A stretch of DNA of 64,000 nt from Planctomycetota bacterium (GCA_046290465.1 JBKAGP010000001.1:4672001-4736000); one strand, 5' to 3'; shown: positions 4,017 through 17,495, counted from the stretch's first letter. Notes: a model not told the origin generated them from the sequence alone. Translations and numbers: made by a program.

Positions 4017-5549
4017 CTACTTGCCGTCGATCGCCTTCAGCGGAAAGACCGACGACGGCGTGTGTTCGCGTGCGGCGATCTTCATCAGCTCGGCGACCTT
4101 GTCGGGCATCTCGGCGGCCAGGTCGTGCTGCTCGCGAGGATCCTTGCGCAGGTCGTAGAGCTCGGTCTTGGGCTGCTTGTGCATGTTCTTGCGCACCAGC
4201 TTGTAGCCACCGGCCCAGACCGCCTGCCAGCCGCGGTAGCCGGCGAACTCGCGGTAGAGGAACTCGCGATCGGCCTGCTCCTCGCCGCGCAGGGTCTGCG
4301 CGAAGCCGACCCCGTTGCAGCCATCGGGAACCTCACCACCGCACAGCGCGGCCAGCGTCGGCATCCAGTCCTCGAAGCCGGTCACGCGATCGCTGGCGCT
4401 GCCGGGCTCGACGTGGCCGGGCCAGCGCACGATCGCGGGAACGCGCACGCCGCCCTCGTACATCGACCCCTTGCGGCCGCGCAGCTCGCCGCACGATTCG
4501 AAGTAGTCGACGTCGGTGCCGCCGATCGGGCTGTGGGTCGCGCCGTTGTCCGACGTGAACACGACGATCGTGTCGTCGGCGAGATCGAGCTCGTCGAGGA
4601 TGTCGAGCAGTTCGCCGACCGAGCGGTCGAGGCGCGTGATCATCGCCGCGTAGGCAGCCTTCGGCTTGAAGTGCGGGGTGTAGCCCTTGCCGCCCGGATA
4701 CGGCTTGTCGTCGAACGCACCTTCGTACTGCGCCAGCTCCTCCTCGGGGACGTGCAGCGCCAGGTGTGGGATCACCGACGGGTAGTAGAGGAAGAACGGC
4801 TTGTCCTTGTTGCTGATCAAGAACGCCTTCGCCGCCGCCAGGATGTGGTCCGGCGCGTAGTCCTGGCCGCGGAAGCGCGCGTAGTTGGCCGGGTCGTTGG
4901 CATCCTCGCCGTTCTTCAGCTTGCCGTGGCCGGGCACGGCCGGCGAATTGGCCAGCCGGACCTTCTCACGGTCGCTCCACAGGTAGTCGGGGTAGTAGCT
5001 GTGCGCGTGGCGCTGGCAGTTGTAGCCGAAGAAGCGGTCGTAGCCGCGCGCCAGCGGATCGGCGTCGCTGCCCGGTGGGCCGAGGCCCCACTTGCCGAAC
5101 GCGCCGGTCGCATAGCCGGCATCGTGCAGCATCTCGCTCATCATCGGTTCGCCGCTGGGCAGCGCCCACTGCCCCTCCGGCTTGTGCTCCTTGTTGTTGC
5201 GCACGGCGGCGGTGCCCGGGTGCTTGCCGGTCATCAGCACGCAGCGCGATGGTGCGCACACGGGAGAACCCGAATAGTGCCGCGTCAGCCGCATGCCCTG
5301 GGCCGCGAGCCGGTCGAGCCGCGGCGTGCGGATCTTCTTCTGGCCGAAGCTGCCGAGCTCGCCGTAGCCGAGGTCGTCGGCCATCACGAACAGCACGTTG
5401 GGCTGCTTGCGCGTCTCGGCGCCGACGGTGCGGCCGAGGAAGCCCGCGGCTGCGCGGCGCGCCTGCTGATCCGGCTGCTGGCCCGCCAGCGGGCTCGGCA
5501 TCGGGATCACCAGCACGGCGACGAATGCGGAGAGGAGGTGGCGTTGCAT
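4017..5549 (-). CDS. Arylsulfatase (formylglycine-dependent sulfatase)
   Basis: PNVLFVMADDLGYG, CAPSR FGly motif, GKWGLG, FTSDNG, GRKGSMYEGGVRVP; signal peptide. Confidence 0.93.
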   Translation of the reverse strand: MQRHLLSAFVAVLVIPMPSPLAGQQPDQQARRAAAGFLGRTVGAETRKQPNVLFVMADDLGYGELGSFGQKKIRTPRLDRLAAQGMRLTRHYSGSPVCAPSRCVLMTGKHPGTAAVRNNKEHKPEGQWALPSGEPMMSEMLHDAGYATGAFGKWGLGPPGSDADPLARGYDRFFGYNCQRHAHSYYPDYLWSDREKVRLANSPAVPGHGKLKNGEDANDPANYARFRGQDYAPDHILAAAKAFLISNKDKPFFLYYPSVIPHLALHVPEEELAQYEGAFDDKPYPGGKGYTPHFKPKAAYAAMITRLDRSVGELLDILDELDLADDTIVVFTSDNGATHSPIGGTDVDYFESCGELRGRKGSMYEGGVRVPAIVRWPGHVEPGSASDRVTGFEDWMPTLAALCGGEVPDGCNGVGFAQTLRGEEQADREFLYREFAGYRGWQAVWAGGYKLVRKNMHKQPKTELYDLRKDPREQHDLAAEMPDKVAELMKIAAREHTPSSVFPLKAIDGK

Positions 5550-5640
5550 GGCGCGCAGTCTAGCCCGCATCGCGGCGGCGGTCTCGATCTGGTCCGGCTC
5601 GCTACCGGGCGTGGCCGATACGGCCGAGGAGCTGGTGCGC

Positions 5641-6312
5641 ATGAACCCGAATCCGCAAGACCCTGACCTTCGCCCCGACCGCAGCCGCGCGCTGCAGCGC
5701 GCCGCGGTGCTGGTGGCGCTGCTGCTGCTGGCGTTCTACGCCGCGATCCCGAACCTCGACGGCGTGCCGCGACGATCGGCCAACGAGAGCGCGGCGATCG
5801 CGACGCTGAAGAACCTGCGCGCCGGCCAGCGGGACCTTCGTGAGCGCGCCCTGGTCGATCGCGATGGCGACGGCGTCGGTGAGCACGGCTTCCTCGCGCA
5901 GCTGGCGGGCGCGGCCGAGTTGCCCGGCGGCGGCGTCGCCGACCCGCCGCTGGTATCGAGGGCGTTCGGCAACGTCGTCGACGGGCGGGTCCTGCGCAGT
6001 GGCTACCGCTTCGCGATGTTCCTGCCGCGTGCCGGCGGCGGCTGGCTGTCGGAGCTGCCGGACGGCGGCGAGCCGGACGACGTCGACGCCGACGCCGCGG
6101 AGCGTTCGTGGCTGCTGTACGCATGGCCGGTGGCACCGCGACGTTCTGGTCGGCGCAGCTTCGTCATCGACGAGCACGGCGACGTGCACGCGACCGGGGA
6201 CCACCGCGAGCCGGTGCCGGGGGTCAGCGCGTTCTGCGTCGTCGACGGGCAGCGGCAACTGGCGCACGCCACGGCCGACGAGCGCGGGGCGGTCTGGGTG
6301 ATCGTGCAGTAG
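5641..6312 (+). CDS. Pilin-like membrane-anchored protein (PNL...NESAAIATLK type, DUF2950-like C-terminus)
   Basis: TM helix then IPNL...ANESAAIATLKNL...DxDGDGVGEHG...SGYRF...YAWP...GRRSFVI. Confidence 0.7.
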   Translation: MNPNPQDPDLRPDRSRALQRAAVLVALLLLAFYAAIPNLDGVPRRSANESAAIATLKNLRAGQRDLRERALVDRDGDGVGEHGFLAQLAGAAELPGGGVADPPLVSRAFGNVVDGRVLRSGYRFAMFLPRAGGGWLSELPDGGEPDDVDADAAERSWLLYAWPVAPRRSGRRSFVIDEHGDVHATGDHREPVPGVSAFCVVDGQRQLAHATADERGAVWVIVQ

Positions 6313-7560: not shown

Positions 7561-8298
7561 ATGAACGATGACAATGATGGGGTCGACGCGATCGATCCTC
7601 GAACGCCCGAACCCGAGGTCGCCCGACCGCGACGCCTGCGCTGGTGGTTGGCCGGTGCGCTGGCCGCGGCCCTGACGACGATCTGGTTGGTGGTGATCGA
7701 ACCCAACCTGCGCGCCGCGCGCATCAACCGCAACGAGTCCGCGGCGATCGCCGCACTCAAGAACATCTCGTCGGCGCAGGCGCAGATGCAGGCGGCCGGC
7801 GTCAACGACGGCGACGGCAACGGCCAGGGCGAGTATGCGTTCTTCGGCCAGCTGGCCGGCAGCGCGTTGCTGCGCCGCCCTTCGGGGCAGCCGCCGGTGC
7901 GCTGTGATCCGCCGGTGTTGTCGGCGAGGTTCGGCGACGTCGTCGACGGCCGCGTGCGCGTCGGCGGCTATTGGTTCGAGATGTTCCTGGCGACGGCCGA
8001 CGGAGAGTGGGTCGCGGAGCGCGCGGACCAGGTGCACCTGGTCAGCATCGCGGAGTCCGAGGTGCTGTGGACCTGCTACGCATATCCGGTCGAGCTGGGT
8101 GTGACCGGTCGACGTGCGTTCATGACCAACCAGTCCGGCGACGTGTTGATGACCAACCAGGCCGGCTATGCCGGCGACGATCGACCCGAGCCGGGACTAG
8201 CGGGGTTTGCCTACGACGGCGACCCGACCTGGATCGTCGGCGCGCGCGTCGCTGCCAACACCGCCGACGCGCACGGACACACCTGGGTCGTCGGTTGA
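7561..8298 (+). CDS. Second pilin-like membrane-anchored protein (paralog of 5641-6312)
   Basis: TM then PNLRAARINRNESAAIAALKNISSAQ...DGDGNGQGEY...GGYWF...YAYP...GRRAF. Confidence 0.75.
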   Translation: MNDDNDGVDAIDPRTPEPEVARPRRLRWWLAGALAAALTTIWLVVIEPNLRAARINRNESAAIAALKNISSAQAQMQAAGVNDGDGNGQGEYAFFGQLAGSALLRRPSGQPPVRCDPPVLSARFGDVVDGRVRVGGYWFEMFLATADGEWVAERADQVHLVSIAESEVLWTCYAYPVELGVTGRRAFMTNQSGDVLMTNQAGYAGDDRPEPGLAGFAYDGDPTWIVGARVAANTADAHGHTWVVG

Positions 8299-12398: not shown

Positions 12399-12815
12399 GG
12401 AGAGCCTCCCTGGGGTTCGAGTGGGGGCGGCAGCGTAGGTGCAGGAACGCGCGGGTGCGAGCTTCGAGCGGATGGCGAACCGGCGCCGCGGCAGGCCGCG
12501 CGGTTGGTTTCGCAGGATGCTCGACCAGGCGAGTCGCACTCGTCGAGGTGGGTCGAAGTGCCGAGCGAGCGGAGAGTTGGAATATCGGACGGCGAACCCC
12601 GTCTGAGCGGGGCTGGCAGCCATCCCGACGCCTTGGAGGGTTGGCGGAGAGTTGGCGTCATGGCGCCAATACGCAGAACGCCAATCGACCGGGCGATCCG
12701 CTCGTCGAGCGCGACGCATCCGGACCTCGAAGCGGGGGCGTGACCGCTGCGGATTTCGCATGGATTCGTCGTCCCCCTTCTTGTCACGCGCGGCGTCACG
12801 CCGCAGGATTTGTCG

Positions 12816-13037
12816 ATGGAAGAAAGCGATCTACCGCGTTCGATGTTCGATGTGCCCGGTAGGCGCCCGGCCCGGTCGGATGATCGCGCGCGGCCTGGTG
12901 AGCCTTCGTCGCAACGGCTCGGCGATCTCTGGATCGAGTCGCGCCCGCAGCCCAACGTCAGCGATCTGGGCAGGGCCTTCTTCACGATCGATGACCATGG
13001 CACGGTCGTGCCGACCCGTCGCCGTGATCGCGACTGA
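12816..13037 (+). CDS. Possible small hypothetical protein
   Basis: AGGA upstream of ATG; second half has GC-rich third positions; fills an otherwise empty gap; convergent with SIR2 gene. Confidence 0.35.
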   Translation: MEESDLPRSMFDVPGRRPARSDDRARPGEPSSQRLGDLWIESRPQPNVSDLGRAFFTIDDHGTVVPTRRRDRD

Positions 13038-13093
13038 ACGACGTTGCCTGCGGCGGGCGCTCACGCCGAGCTGACCGGCGGTGGTAGGCGGCG

Positions 13094-14122
13094 TCAGCCG
13101 TGGTTGCTCGCCGCGCGCCCGCTCCGGAATCCGGGGTGGTTGCGAAGCGCGAAGTCGAGCCGCCCCCACTGGCAGTTCCGCGTCAGGGAGTGCAACACCG
13201 CGACCTGGTCCTGGAAGTCCCTTCGATGCGACCAATAGGTGTGCGTCACCCCGAGGTCCTCAAGGCGATCACACATCTCGCGTTGATTGGGAACGGCGCC
13301 GGGAGCGACCGAGGGCAGCATGGCCAGGTGCCCACCGCTGACGCGTCGGACCTGCGCAGCCAGTCGCAGCAGCTTGCGTACCGACGGGTCGGTGAAGCCG
13401 AATCCGTAGAACAGGCAGCGGTGCTGTGAGAACGTCGCGACCTGGAGCGAGTTCTGCCAGATGTCGGCGATCCCACCGCGAACCTCGTAGTCCTCGGCGG
13501 ACATCGTCAACGGTTGCTTGCGCAGGTCCTCCTCGAACTCGTCCGCCAACTGGCTCGCATCGACCGGAACCAGCCCGTGTGGGTGCAGGATGCGCACCTT
13601 CGGGAGGTCTCGAGCCGGGCGCTGTTCGGGTTCGAACACGACCTCGCGGTATGGCGCGGTCTCGCCGAGCACCGGTACCAGCGCGATCGCCTGGAAGCCC
13701 AGGCGTGCGATCGACAGTTCGAGCAGGCAGTCGACGTTGTAGGTGATCACGTGCGCCTGGCTGCGGGGCGCGCGCCACGCGATCTCGGCCGAGATCGCGG
13801 CCAGGTGCCGCACCGCGAAGAACGGCCAGGTGGTATCGGAGAGCACGAAGTTGTCTCCGTAGAGCGCGTCTCGGAGCGCCCGCCGGTAGCTCGCTTCGGA
13901 GCCGTTGCCGCGAACGCACTCGATGGCCCAGCTGGGCTCGACGTTGCAGCGTTGCAGCGAATCGCTGCCGCGAATGGCCTGCGCCAGATACGCAGCCAAC
14001 GTGTTCCAGTCGGGCAGCTGCGCATCCATGCTGGCGCCGGCACCGATGGCCAGGCGCAGGTCTCCCTCGTTGATCGCGGCGTCGCCGATCGACGCGAGTT
14101 CGCTGGCGGCGACTTCGCTCAT
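13094..14122 (-). CDS. SIR2-family (SIR2_2-like) protein, putative NADase
   Basis: IGAGAS..AQLPDW, VITYNVDCLLE, ILHPHG, LTMSAEDY, CLFYGFGFTDPSV motifs. Confidence 0.88.
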   Translation of the reverse strand: MSEVAASELASIGDAAINEGDLRLAIGAGASMDAQLPDWNTLAAYLAQAIRGSDSLQRCNVEPSWAIECVRGNGSEASYRRALRDALYGDNFVLSDTTWPFFAVRHLAAISAEIAWRAPRSQAHVITYNVDCLLELSIARLGFQAIALVPVLGETAPYREVVFEPEQRPARDLPKVRILHPHGLVPVDASQLADEFEEDLRKQPLTMSAEDYEVRGGIADIWQNSLQVATFSQHRCLFYGFGFTDPSVRKLLRLAAQVRRVSGGHLAMLPSVAPGAVPNQREMCDRLEDLGVTHTYWSHRRDFQDQVAVLHSLTRNCQWGRLDFALRNHPGFRSGRAASNHG

Positions 14123-17100
14123 AGCTCTGCCTCACCCTCCTGTCCCCGCGAACGGGGTTCCGGTGCCGTTCCGTGACGGGTACTCGTCTGCTGACTTGCG
14201 GCAGCGATGTTCTCGTCCGCCTGCGTCCGGTCCCCGAGCCGGGCGCTCGCTTGGATCGACGCGTTGCCGATGGCTCTGCGGATGCTCGGCTGCAGGGCGA
14301 TCATCGAGCCATAGAACGACGCGACATGACGGGCCCATTGCGCGGTGGTCGCGTCGGACACGAAGAACAGCCGACCTCTCTGGCACACGACGGCTTCGGA
14401 CGGATCGAGTGGCGGGCTGTGCGCATCGGCCATGCGCGCGGGCGGCAGGCGAAGTCGATCGTAGTCGGCGAATCTCGCGTCGTTCTCGCGCACCGGCTCG
14501 CGGATCCGTTCGTCCTCGTCGAGGTAGCCGCTGGTCACGGTCACGTTGTGGGTGTTGTTGAGCAGGAAGTCGCGGATGTCGCGCAGCCTTGCCCTCGCCG
14601 TAGCCCAGTGGCTGCGGGCCAGCGCCGCCGGCTTGCTGACCTTGACGGTTCCGGCCAGTCGCTCCTGCACGTATCGACGGCTGTCGCGGAAGAAGCTGGC
14701 GGCCATTCGCAGCACCCTCGGCGAACGAAGCCAGCCACACGCCTCGATCTGGTCGCCGACGAACTTGTCCCACGCGTTCTTCTCGAACAGATCGTGTAGC
14801 TGGCCGCGGCCGCCTGGATGCACGAGGCACTCCTTGTAGAGGCGCTCCCGCAGCAGCATGGCGCTGGCGCGCAGACGGTCCCGGATCCGGACCCAGCGGT
14901 CGAACTCCTCCCGATCATTGAGGTCTCCGTCGGCGTTGGGCTCGTCGGCCGACGCCGCGAGATCGCGGCAGAACTCGCCGAACAAGATGCGCATCACCAG
15001 GGTCAGAACGGTCTCCTGCTCGTAGGTCGTCCGTGCCGCGCCGCGGTCGTTCGCCTCCGAGTCGAGGCTCGAGGCGCGGATCTGGCAGGCGTCGTTCCTC
15101 AGCAGGCCCTGCAGCAACAGGGAGCGTGCCAGGGTCGCCGTGTCGACCTCGAGCAGCAGGCTGGCCAGGTAGAAGTTGGCTCCCAGCAGCAGCCGCTTCG
15201 AGTCCGTCGCGTCCGAGCACTCACGCAGATCGTGGTAGGCCTCGGCGAGCTGTCGCAGGTCCACGCTGCCTCCAGGGTCGTTGCCCTCGGGGTTGGGCCG
15301 GCCCTGCACGTCGAACTCGTTGAGGACCTCGAGGAACATCGTGGCGACGTGTGAGGCGAGTTCGTCGAAGAACAGGGGCTGCTCGACGATCGCGATGGGG
15401 ACGCGCAGCAGCACGACGTCGACCTGCAGGCTCGCCTGGCTCACGGGCTCCCCTACGGTGGCGATGCATGCCCGAGGCGGATCCAGCAGCGTGCCGACCA
15501 TCGTCCATCCAACCAGTGTGGCGATGCTGCGGATCTGCTCGAGGTTGCCTGGACGGCGCAGGTTCAGGTCCGCGTTCGAATCGATGGGGGCGACGCTCCA
15601 ATGCGGTGCCGACAGCACGGTCCGGACCGCGGCGAGGGTCTCGCCGATGTCCTGACTCAGGTGGCGCAGCCTCTGCTCGACGGCCTTTCGCCGGGTGGAG
15701 GCCGGGTTCTCGTGAAGGTCGCGCAGCCTGGCCGCCAGGCGACGCAGGTAGTCGACCAGCGACGAAACGACCGGTCGCAGCTCCACCGTGCCCTCCCACA
15801 GCCACATCGAGTCCCAGGTCCAGCGGAGCACGGAGACCGTGTTGATGACCTGTTCCGTGTCTTCGTACGTGACCTGCAGCACGCGCAGCAGGTTGCGCAT
15901 CTCGGCAGGGCCGTTGGGTGCCAGCTGGTTCCAGTTGGAGCCGAACAGGTGGCGGCGCGGATCCTCGTCGACGTGGTCCTTGGGCACGTCGTCGCAATCG
16001 CTCGACGCACTGGTCGAGATCGACGATGCCGACGCGAAGAAGTCCTGGCGCCCGCGTCCGTCCGATCGCGTTGCACCCCGGAACAGTCGCGTCCTGAGCA
16101 TCGTGGTCAGGGCTGCAGCCGCAATCGCATCGACGTGGTTGCCGTCTGCGTCGTCGGACTTCTTGCCGATCGGGTGGATGTCGAACGCGGGTGACGACGT
16201 GTCGTAGCCGCCGACGTTGAAGCTGGTGTTGCGTTCGGCCTGCTCGTGTTCGTCGAAGAACTGCAGGAACGGCTTCTCGTGGCCCGGGTTGATACAGAAG
16301 TGCGTTCGGCACGTCACGCGCGGGCCCTTGGGCTTGCTGCTGCGTCGCCCGGCGCGATGTGACTGACGCGAGAGATCTTCCGAGACGCGGTTCGCCGATT
16401 CCTGCAACTGCTCGAGTGTGGCATCGGGGCGCAGCCCCGCGGCCGCAGCGGCAGCTGCACTCTCGATTGCGTAGTCGAACCCCAGCGTCGAGGAGGTGAC
16501 GAGTGCGGTATGAGCGCTTGCCTGCTTGCCGACGGGCACCTGCGACCTGCGTACGCGCAGGATGAGGTCGAGCAGAGGGTGCAGATCGCTGGCGTGGGCG
16601 ACGAGCACCACTTCGTGCCACGAGAGCGACAGGCCGAGCGCGGCACGCGTCTGGTCCGACTTCCGTCGCCCGGGTTGCTCGTTGCGCCAGGCCTGCACCG
16701 TTTGCGCGATCGAACGCACGGCTTCGTGGGTTCGGCTGTTCTGGTTCTTGCTCCAGGTCGAGTAGGGGGAGAGCTTGATCTGGACGATCGCGAGGAAGCG
16801 GTCGCCTGCGTCCTTCGGCTGCTCATGGCTGGAGGCCTTGCCCACCGATTGCAGGTAGTGCGCGTTGCAGTCCTCGTCACCGGTGCCGAGCTTGGGCAGG
16901 AACAGCGAGAACTCGCTCTGCCGGACCTCCAGTTCTGGCGCTGCCGGCAGTGGTGTCAGGCTCGGGCTGAGGTAGACCGCGGCCAGATCGTACGAACCCC
17001 AGAGGCTGTACAGGGATGGCACGTAGGTCGGGGTCGACGCGGTGCTCGCACGTTGGTCGATACCCGTTGCCGATAGCTTGTCCAGAGTGGGTTCGTCGAT

Positions 17101-17286
17101 GCCGAGTCGCAGAGCGAGGTCACGCTTGCGCCGGATCGGGACCTCTTGGATACGTTTGAAAACGGCTTCGGCGGTCTTGTCGTAGTCCGCCGCCGCGTCT
17201 CCGTTCGTAAGGCGTCGCAGGGACGGCTGCAGCAGCCGTGCGTGCAAGAAGCTGTCGTGATACTCGAACGCATTGCGTCGCGACAT
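14119..17286 (-). CDS. Large hypothetical protein (~1055 aa) with apparent tandem Lrp/AsnC(RAM)-like repeats
   Basis: Long uninterrupted ORF with protein-like composition, GGAGG RBS, ATGA overlap with the SIR2 gene; GSYD/GGYD repeats. Confidence 0.75.
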   Translation of the reverse strand: MSRRNAFEYHDSFLHARLLQPSLRRLTNGDAAADYDKTAEAVFKRIQEVPIRRKRDLALRLGIDEPTLDKLSATGIDQRASTASTPTYVPSLYSLWGSYDLAAVYLSPSLTPLPAAPELEVRQSEFSLFLPKLGTGDEDCNAHYLQSVGKASSHEQPKDAGDRFLAIVQIKLSPYSTWSKNQNSRTHEAVRSIAQTVQAWRNEQPGRRKSDQTRAALGLSLSWHEVVLVAHASDLHPLLDLILRVRRSQVPVGKQASAHTALVTSSTLGFDYAIESAAAAAAAGLRPDATLEQLQESANRVSEDLSRQSHRAGRRSSKPKGPRVTCRTHFCINPGHEKPFLQFFDEHEQAERNTSFNVGGYDTSSPAFDIHPIGKKSDDADGNHVDAIAAAALTTMLRTRLFRGATRSDGRGRQDFFASASSISTSASSDCDDVPKDHVDEDPRRHLFGSNWNQLAPNGPAEMRNLLRVLQVTYEDTEQVINTVSVLRWTWDSMWLWEGTVELRPVVSSLVDYLRRLAARLRDLHENPASTRRKAVEQRLRHLSQDIGETLAAVRTVLSAPHWSVAPIDSNADLNLRRPGNLEQIRSIATLVGWTMVGTLLDPPRACIATVGEPVSQASLQVDVVLLRVPIAIVEQPLFFDELASHVATMFLEVLNEFDVQGRPNPEGNDPGGSVDLRQLAEAYHDLRECSDATDSKRLLLGANFYLASLLLEVDTATLARSLLLQGLLRNDACQIRASSLDSEANDRGAARTTYEQETVLTLVMRILFGEFCRDLAASADEPNADGDLNDREEFDRWVRIRDRLRASAMLLRERLYKECLVHPGGRGQLHDLFEKNAWDKFVGDQIEACGWLRSPRVLRMAASFFRDSRRYVQERLAGTVKVSKPAALARSHWATARARLRDIRDFLLNNTHNVTVTSGYLDEDERIREPVRENDARFADYDRLRLPPARMADAHSPPLDPSEAVVCQRGRLFFVSDATTAQWARHVASFYGSMIALQPSIRRAIGNASIQASARLGDRTQADENIAAASQQTSTRHGTAPEPRSRGQEGEAEL

Positions 17287-17495
17287 GTGGACTCGATCCT
17301 CCACGGCCACTGTCGTCGCAGGTCGTGTCGGATGCAAGTTGCGGGCATCTGCTCGTACGAAACCGTTGGGTATGGACCCATGCGCCGTACATCCACATGT
17401 GTGTCAGCCGCACGCCTGCAAGCGTCCGCCCAGGCACCGCCCGACGGCCATGGCCGCGCGCCACGATCGCCGTAACCCGTTCCGGGTGCGGACCC

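Follow-up and report, generated by a model that had tools for sequence, protein, structure and literature searches.

SIR2 enzymes that cleave nicotinamide adenine dinucleotide (NADases acting on NAD+) recur as death effectors in bacterial immune systems, the sensor being what defines each known system. A 2023 review names as SIR2 systems Thoeris, SPARSA, DSR1, DSR2, Sir2-HerA, Avast V, and PD-T7-2, none of which is given there a partner of the kind considered here (PMC10952713). The locus of this study lies in a 64,000-nucleotide (nt) stretch of a Planctomycetota bacterium (GCA_046290465.1, JBKAGP010000001.1:4672001–4736000; hereafter the window), and consists of a stand-alone SIR2 gene and the gene for a much larger partner protein (Table 1). 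A preliminary description had proposed the two as a new sensor-plus-SIR2 abortive-infection pair, with a giant multi-RAM-like protein as the sensor. The reading favoured here, with a probability of roughly 55%, is that the pair would be a two-gene sensor-plus-SIR2 abortive-infection system that depletes NAD+ and is gated within a complex, with proteolysis not obligatory.

The locus shares features with several described systems. Sir2-HerA (Nezha, PD-T7-2) and SPARSA likewise couple a separate SIR2 gene to a dedicated partner and keep the catalytic Asn and His, but the partner here has no Walker A, HerA, or Argonaute/PIWI match, having barrels and a core resembling gluzincin peptidases instead. 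DSR1/DSR2 and Avs5 also combine a SIR2 effector with a large, mostly helical regulatory part, and there are weak Dsr1 profile matches, confined to the SIR2 part; here, however, sensor and effector are encoded separately at each of the 13 loci, whichever gene comes first, with no STAND NTPase. Thoeris type I (ThsA/ThsB) supplies the best PADLOC match of the SIR2 protein, which has weak ThsA and SIR2 matches at E 1e-5 to 3e-5 (ThsA at 1e-5), and among its homologues the ThsA match reaches E 2e-10, although the SIR2 here has no SLOG and the partner no TIR domain. The best PADLOC matches of the SIR2 proteins overall are ThsA, SIR2, Dsr1, and LmuA, and the Aga_SIR2 profile matches the first 54 residues marginally (E 0.076). 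Lit is described as a zincin-like anti-phage protease (PMC3506569), which is comparable to the zincin-like domain in the presumed anti-phage context here, but in this case the domain sits inside a protein of 900–1300 amino acids (aa) paired with SIR2, and its putative zinc ligands are lost in this clade. Finally, the tandem ferredoxin-like fold of the partner resembles chlorite dismutase, HemQ, DyP, and ABM proteins, yet with only 6–13% identity and as part of a large multi-domain protein.

Judged by these sequence matches, the module belongs to none of the Thoeris, DSR, SPARSA, Sir2-HerA, and Avs systems. A SIR2 gene with such a partner was not found described in the titles and abstract openings of the open-access literature, while subscription journals and supplementary tables of defence screens could hold the family; the module is apparently undescribed, joining a known kind of effector to a new kind of partner.

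Conserved Pairing of the Two Genes

Searching with a pattern of the large protein alone fetched six loci (L002–L007, branch A), and SIR2 lies directly downstream on the same strand in 6/6, with overlapping or nearly abutting gene junctions. Four of the six are intact as far as their contigs reach. The copy in L002 (9980–13030) is decaying, with the large gene missing approximately its first 150 residues and the SIR2 stopping at 106 aa, and both genes of L007 are frameshifted, through either decay or assembly error. The L002 pair stands directly before a lolA-like gene and tgt.

A sister branch (branch B) has the opposite gene order. Four of the 18 neighbourhoods fetched with a SIR2 profile contain a distant SIR2 upstream of an open reading frame (ORF) of 870–940 aa, with an ATGA overlap in each; this ORF matches the large-protein profile weakly, has 56 homologues, and has no Pfam or PADLOC match. 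Profile–profile alignment of branches A and B is colinear, with a probability of 81%, an E of 1.3e-5, and a score of 60 against 17–22 for five shuffles; an earlier comparison with four sequences had given 61%, and cross-hmmsearch an E of 5e-8. The branch-B large protein has six matches in 127 genomes, the two new ones also with SIR2 directly upstream, giving 6/6 branch-B loci with this arrangement, two of them found without using SIR2. These loci belong to a single taxonomic order and are mutually related, and they occur in Thermoanaerobaculia-type genomes, inserted in the vicinity of housekeeping genes including thrS-infC-rplT-pheS, valS, and an ftsE-like gene.

SIR2 is therefore adjacent in 13/13 loci, window included, eight of which are independent of selection by SIR2; this is the outcome of the neighbourhood analysis by which the preliminary description had wanted the pairing checked. 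These observations support the pair as a conserved, mobile, translationally coupled module. A frameshift-split single gene was ruled out by the conservation of the split and the reversibility of gene order.

The large protein P0012 and the SIR2 protein P0034 both derive from 5144-nt Logan contigs and may be a further pair, and the SIR2 proteins P0002 and P0031–P0033 form one well-supported branch. The other 14 of the 18 distant-SIR2 neighbourhoods have no match to the large-protein profile and were set aside as other SIR2 systems, and a SIR2 scan of metagenomes returned one locus (L008) without an ORF at the match, which was dropped as spurious. The strongest distant SIR2 match (L077:6749–8311, E 4.5e-33) is a protein of 521 aa whose SIR2 domain is preceded by an N-terminal extension; it lies in a cluster of unknown genes with a low GC content at third codon positions (GC3), with no homologue of the large partner nearby. 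At L079:3864–9282, a 546-aa SIR2 protein stands beside two genes in a possible defence cluster; we take these neighbours to be DUF6884-like and TcmP-like genes.

Gene Structure and the Predicted SIR2 Effector

Both minus-strand ORFs and their ATGA overlap were located as first described, and the ribosome-binding sites reported for them correspond to GGAGG/GAGG motifs upstream of both ATGs, at spacings of ~11 nt and 7–13 nt. The start of the large gene is slightly uncertain, as a National Center for Biotechnology Information (NCBI) record of the same cluster has 1063 aa. The genes on either side, an SGL/gluconolactonase-like gene and a PaaK-like CoA ligase by profile match, are indeed unrelated metabolic genes. 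A higher A/T content at third codon positions had also been claimed, and the GC3 values of 0.845 (large gene) and 0.860 (SIR2), against 0.93–0.95 in the SGL, paaK-like, and phytase-like genes on either side, bear this out; among 2587 heuristically called ORFs of at least 300 aa (median 0.931) they fall at the 11th and 14th percentile, a depression that is real, yet modest. The host genome is 6.59 Mb with 70% GC, and no tubulin/FtsZ match was found in it, unlike in 13 of 14 control genomes; a genome without FtsZ fits Planctomycetota.

The SIR2 protein matches SIR2_2 with an E of 2.6e-8 (34.5 bits, gathering cut-off 24.5), and this domain is present as a single copy in the host genome. A Pfam scan found no second domain on the protein, in keeping with the claim that nothing is fused to it, and the GAGxS loop, TxN(V)D Asn, and HG His noted in the preliminary description are all there, as GAGAS, TYNVD, and HPHG. 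Asn129, Asp131, and His182 are kept in 16/16 intact SIR2 sequences across both branches, the L002 copy (truncated) and the L007 copy (frameshifted) being excluded from the count. Going by motif position, Asn129 and His182 would be equivalent to DSR2 N133 and H171, two residues that DSR2 needs for NAD+ cleavage and that ThsA and further defence sirtuins share (PMC11087589). The SIR2 protein looks catalytically intact from its motifs.

Table 1. Positions of the gene pair, its predicted domains and motifs, the inserted segment, and the related sister-branch loci (window coordinates unless a locus is named; aa, amino acids).
Feature	Coordinates	Strand	Remarks
Large partner gene	14119..17286	-	ORF from ATG, 1055 aa, unnamed family
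Stand-alone SIR2_2 (PF13289) gene	13094..14122	-	342 aa, predicted NADase effector
ATGA stop/start overlap	14119..14122	-	Couples large gene and SIR2
Tandem ferredoxin-like pair, dimeric alpha+beta barrel type, residues 9-277	16456..17262	-	Candidate sensor
Probable third ferredoxin-like unit, residues ~324-425	16012..16317	-	Model secondary structure; conserved PGHE, GxxD
Putative helical bundle, residues ~443-600, conserved LQ, EQ, two Trp	15487..15960	-	Model and conservation; generic helical fold matches
Gluzincin-like domain, residues ~606-780, degenerate in this copy	14947..15471	-	Sheet of three strands, HExxH helix, ExxxD helix
Family HExxH position, residues 645-649	15340..15354	-	Reads SHVAT here; alignment columns
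Asn129 of TYNVD	13736..13738	-	Invariant in alignments; putative equivalent of DSR2 N133
His182 of HPHG	13577..13579	-	Invariant in alignments; putative equivalent of DSR2 H171
Inserted segment, ~5.0 kb, edges approximate	12463..17495		Between SGL-like and paaK-like genes
Segment part 3' of SIR2, ~630 nt	12463..13093		No convincing gene, short ORFs only
Sister-branch loci	L080:6890-10659, L081:762-4525, L082:6855-10501, L083:453-4222, L099, L100		SIR2 first, HExxH-intact large gene second

Insertion Site and Stability

Of 14 congeners, 13 have the paaK-like gene and 10 the SGL-like gene, and four of the nine congeners that have both (G003, G005, G007, and G012) show an empty site. In three of these the homology blocks of the flanking genes are 10–50 nt apart, and in the fourth ~80 nt; in the other five congeners the flanking genes lie on separate contigs, with the region rearranged in at least G001. 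A query search did not find the large gene in 60 relatives, nor did the SIR2 profile have a match in the four empty-site genomes, which are 74–88% complete. The view of the gene pair as a mobile, inserted module is supported by these comparisons. Further signs of mobility are its low frequency among genomes, the changing neighbours, the mobilisable elements at two loci, and the damaged copies in L002 and L007.

No flanking repeat or tRNA was found at the edges of the ~5-kb segment, and in their absence a transposon, a prophage, and a tRNA-integrated island were each rejected. None of the other fetched loci matches the part of the segment 3' of SIR2, which elsewhere in the genome has only a 35-nt match ~104 kb away. 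A 55-codon minus-strand stretch within it, from near 12998, could be a remnant.

Contigs from four sequencing runs (three studies) all cover parts of both genes with 95–100% identity. The 40 of 163 variants that were listed include 15 in the large gene, affecting 14 codons, and nine of these 14 variant codons are synonymous compared with 25% expected by chance (p 0.002, small sample). This synonymous excess appears to favour a large protein under purifying selection. A decayed pseudogene was rejected by the intact ORFs, the synonymous excess, and the lack of any coding indel listed in either gene across the four runs.

Domain Composition of the Large Partner

No match to the large protein was found in Pfam, NCBIfam, PADLOC (PADLOC-DB version 2.0.0, 2023), or PHROG, and no significant one among Protein Data Bank (PDB) sequences, against which the homologue profile A3 also gave nothing significant. 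The PADLOC result is the one anticipated beforehand. The protein lacks a Walker A pattern, and its hydrophobic segments do not exceed a Kyte–Doolittle (KD) value of 1.61; a Walker A pattern does occur in 2/29 branch-A and 3/56 branch-B proteins, at non-equivalent places. The initial observation of a partner devoid of TIR, PIWI, Walker A, and cyclase motifs agrees with these searches. Exhaustive searching found 27 homologues (23–35% identity, most of them 900–1300 aa) and a later search one more, with Myxococcota and Acidobacteriota as the named sources in branch A. Computationally, the partner matches no known system or housekeeping family and its homologues do co-occur with SIR2, the two outcomes on which the preliminary description had made its pair depend.

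An AlphaFold2 model of the large protein (predicted template modelling score, pTM, 0.84; predicted local distance difference test, pLDDT, 77.9) suggests a chain of distinct domains. Residues 9–277 resemble chlorite dismutase/HemQ/HmoB/ABM barrels in VIA-align (Z 11–12.6, root-mean-square deviation (rmsd) 3–4.5, 150–210 residues aligned), among them 3f44 (Z 12.0, rmsd 4.0, 179 aligned) and HemQ 6vsa (Z 12.6, rmsd 4.1, 208 aligned), with a best Foldseek E of 3.5e-3 for the barrel pair. Several His are conserved in the N-terminal part, and the C-terminus is helical in the model. In hhalign against four Lrp/AsnC RAM domains the probability is 0.4–1.9% and the similarity is confined to a G-x-x-D hairpin; units 1 and 3 score above all 30 shuffles, while unit 2 does not. 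Lrp/AsnC domains are absent from the top 50 VIA rows, a cut-off that small domains may not reach. As a description of fold class drawn from the model, "RAM-like" is fair, without being an assignment: ferredoxin-like units, the third of them probable, occupy only the first ~430 residues, and their nearest folds are chlorite dismutase/HemQ/ABM barrels rather than Lrp RAM (<2% hhalign probability); the remainder appears to be a helical bundle, a gluzincin-like core, and a helical C-terminus.

This core, overlooked when the partner was taken as multi-RAM only, seems intact in most homologues and dead here. Most homologues carry L-E-S-L-[AG]-H-E-V-G-H on the helix after a three-stranded sheet, and then a helix with E-x-x-x-D. 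Gluzincins are defined by HExxH plus Glu (PMC7542363), and these residues would be the zinc ligands in the family. In the 25 branch-A proteins covering the region, HExxH is complete in 17, reduced to HE in four, and lost in four, and the downstream Glu is present in 19; in branch B, HExxH is present in 53/55 and the Glu in 54/54. For a model of the region from the intact homologue P0020 (pTM 0.85), 22 of the 25 best VIA rows are, judging from their entry titles, zincin-type proteins (Z 5.2–6.5), including M1 aminopeptidases, M48, M30, M36, M13, thermolysin, and minigluzincins, and the top Foldseek rows are mostly zincins at E 0.15 or worse. The domain is assigned as gluzincin-like because motif and fold class agree, though each score is middling.

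In the copy of the window both zinc motifs are lost, with SHVAT at the HExxH column and Leu at the Glu column, and the same loss is seen in its three closest relatives. A quick maximum-likelihood tree groups the four motif-less members on a single branch (support 89, or 99 together with the half-degenerate P0008), although its long branches call for caution. Since conservation of the protein has outlasted its putative zinc ligands, the gluzincin domain here probably acts as a pseudo-peptidase binding module, and proteolysis would not be obligatory. Inactive metallopeptidases commonly act by protein binding (PMC11266112).

Proposed Mechanism and Alternative Explanations

The module probably works like two-gene SIR2 abortive-infection systems. 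The large protein would be the sensor or regulator and the stand-alone SIR2 the NAD+-hydrolysing effector, the two being made together through translational coupling, the overlap for which is observed. They would most likely form a complex in which SIR2 is kept off until the large protein binds either an invader protein in the gluzincin-like cleft or a ligand on the N-terminal barrel; binding would switch SIR2 into an active oligomer, and the resulting NAD+ depletion would stop growth and abort the infection, as suggested by analogy with DSR2, ThsA, and Sir2-HerA. Complex prediction for residues 436–1036 of the large protein with SIR2, the barrels being outside the model, gave a score of 0.00, which is neutral either way. 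The ancestral large protein was probably an active zinc peptidase, with this clade having become a pseudo-peptidase binder. More tentatively, the family may be the prototype of a zinc-peptidase-gated SIR2 immune system, in which a protease-like cleft cleaves or traps a phage protein and activates a separate NADase, a notion that should be regarded as possible but doubtful. Of the new sensor-plus-SIR2 pair first put forward, the conserved coupled module and the lack of a library family for the partner hold, while the partner is not simply multi-RAM.

Several points weigh against this sensor-plus-SIR2 reading. Both NADase and anti-phage activity are predictions. Scanning of the six branch-A loci showed no recognised defence system next to the module, and the defence-island enrichment that had been looked for was not seen, and 4/6 branch-A loci as well as the inspected branch-B loci lie among housekeeping or metabolic genes. 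All four sequencing runs carry the module and none of their contigs joins across the segment, so that within the species it looks stable and not flickering. The gluzincin Z scores of 5–6.5 are individually within the range of chance arrangement, and no Foldseek row reaches E 0.001.

The retention of HExxH and the downstream Glu in most members of both branches bears on a different mechanism, in which a triggered gluzincin cleaves SIR2, itself, or an inhibitor to free the NADase, or kills directly in the manner of Lit with SIR2 as a second effector. Since HExxH is conserved at ~25% identity, catalysis would be expected in most of the large-protein family, and Lit offers a precedent (PMC3506569). 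The copy in the window would then be a derived variant working otherwise, or one that is slowly decaying. However, four long-diverged members (25–33% identical to the query) share the loss whilst being full-length or nearly so, this copy is apparently under purifying selection with its SIR2 intact, and branch B also has losses (the first His in 0/55, the Glu and second His in 2/55), leaving gating by proteolysis rather unlikely as the general explanation.

The coupling and mobility of the two genes, with mobilisable elements in 2/6 loci, are also what a toxin–antitoxin or addiction module would show, SIR2 being a constitutive NAD+-depleting toxin that the large protein neutralises or degrades, and phage defence secondary. 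In ~800 genomes no strong full-length match to this SIR2 clade was found without the partner, which would fit such a module. Typical antitoxins are, however, far smaller than this multi-domain partner of 850–1300 aa, and branch B has SIR2 first, the opposite of the usual antitoxin-first order, which makes addiction an improbable function.

A regulator outside defence, with a barrel that senses heme, redox state, or a metabolite and a SIR2 that ADP-ribosylates or deacylates a cellular target, would suit the nearest barrel folds, which handle heme or oxygen, the several conserved N-terminal His, and the often metabolic neighbours; some sirtuins are ADP-ribosyltransferases (PMC9503650). A regulatory role is decidedly improbable all the same: no two loci have the same neighbours, which leaves no pathway link, the family is very sparsely distributed, the best matches of this PF13289-type SIR2 are defence sirtuins, and a shared barrel fold shows no function. 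A Thoeris-like second messenger made by the large protein and read by SIR2, to which the two separate genes and the weak similarity to ThsA profiles would be suited, is highly improbable, for no extra domain such as SLOG or Macro accompanies SIR2, and neither sequence nor fold searches matched the partner to a TIR, cyclase, or nucleotidyltransferase.

If the partner of the favoured sensor-plus-SIR2 system is a true defence sensor, it would represent a new way of detecting infection. At least 85 proteins make up its family, which has no name in the libraries, and its architecture is not among the SIR2 partners listed in the papers cited. The family comes from uncultured marine and soil lineages that are barely covered by defence libraries, and the module is small, with two genes. 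Active and pseudo-peptidase versions would form a natural pair, in which the step from protease to sensor could be compared between homologues.

Distribution and Neighbourhoods

The large-protein family was found in 1/401 genomes of the host phylum and 2/401 genomes of the class of G452, frequencies that are lower bounds, as only two to five candidates were scored in each genome and branch-B members of the same class escaped the A1 profile. The query alone had no match in genome contigs, the branch-A patterns had none in metagenome or viral contigs, and the branch-B pattern had none in viral contigs. No plasmid match was found for either branch and no phage copy among PHROGs. An Atlas search with the query gave no usable match, while one with the homologue P0009 gave three unnamed clusters of hypothetical proteins of 650–880 aa (scores 0.88–0.93) from Verrucomicrobiota, Bacillota, and Melainabacteria, which share model features and may belong to a wider superfamily, and are to be taken as a lead only.

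The genes beside the module are different at each locus. Neighbour matches in branch A, from scans of 66 and 57 selected ORFs, comprise a methyltransferase, IS21, a kinase, PDC-S70, PDC-M52B, and generic matches; the branch-B loci were read as an unscanned ORF listing. The mobilisable elements of branch A are those of L003 and L004, with MobC or a relaxase, RadC, a primase, IS21, and a methyltransferase. In these two Acidobacteriota loci (L003:14218–21093 and L004:14564–22247) a gene for a type IV coupling protein directly follows the module, together with a Toprim primase, and the coupling gene of L003 is cut short beside the IS21 element. Elsewhere in the window, 5548–6312 and 7561–8298 are paralogous pilin-like genes with a common ANESAAIA.LKN segment, situated around a cytochrome c peroxidase-like ORF, these labels having been given by reading the sequence.

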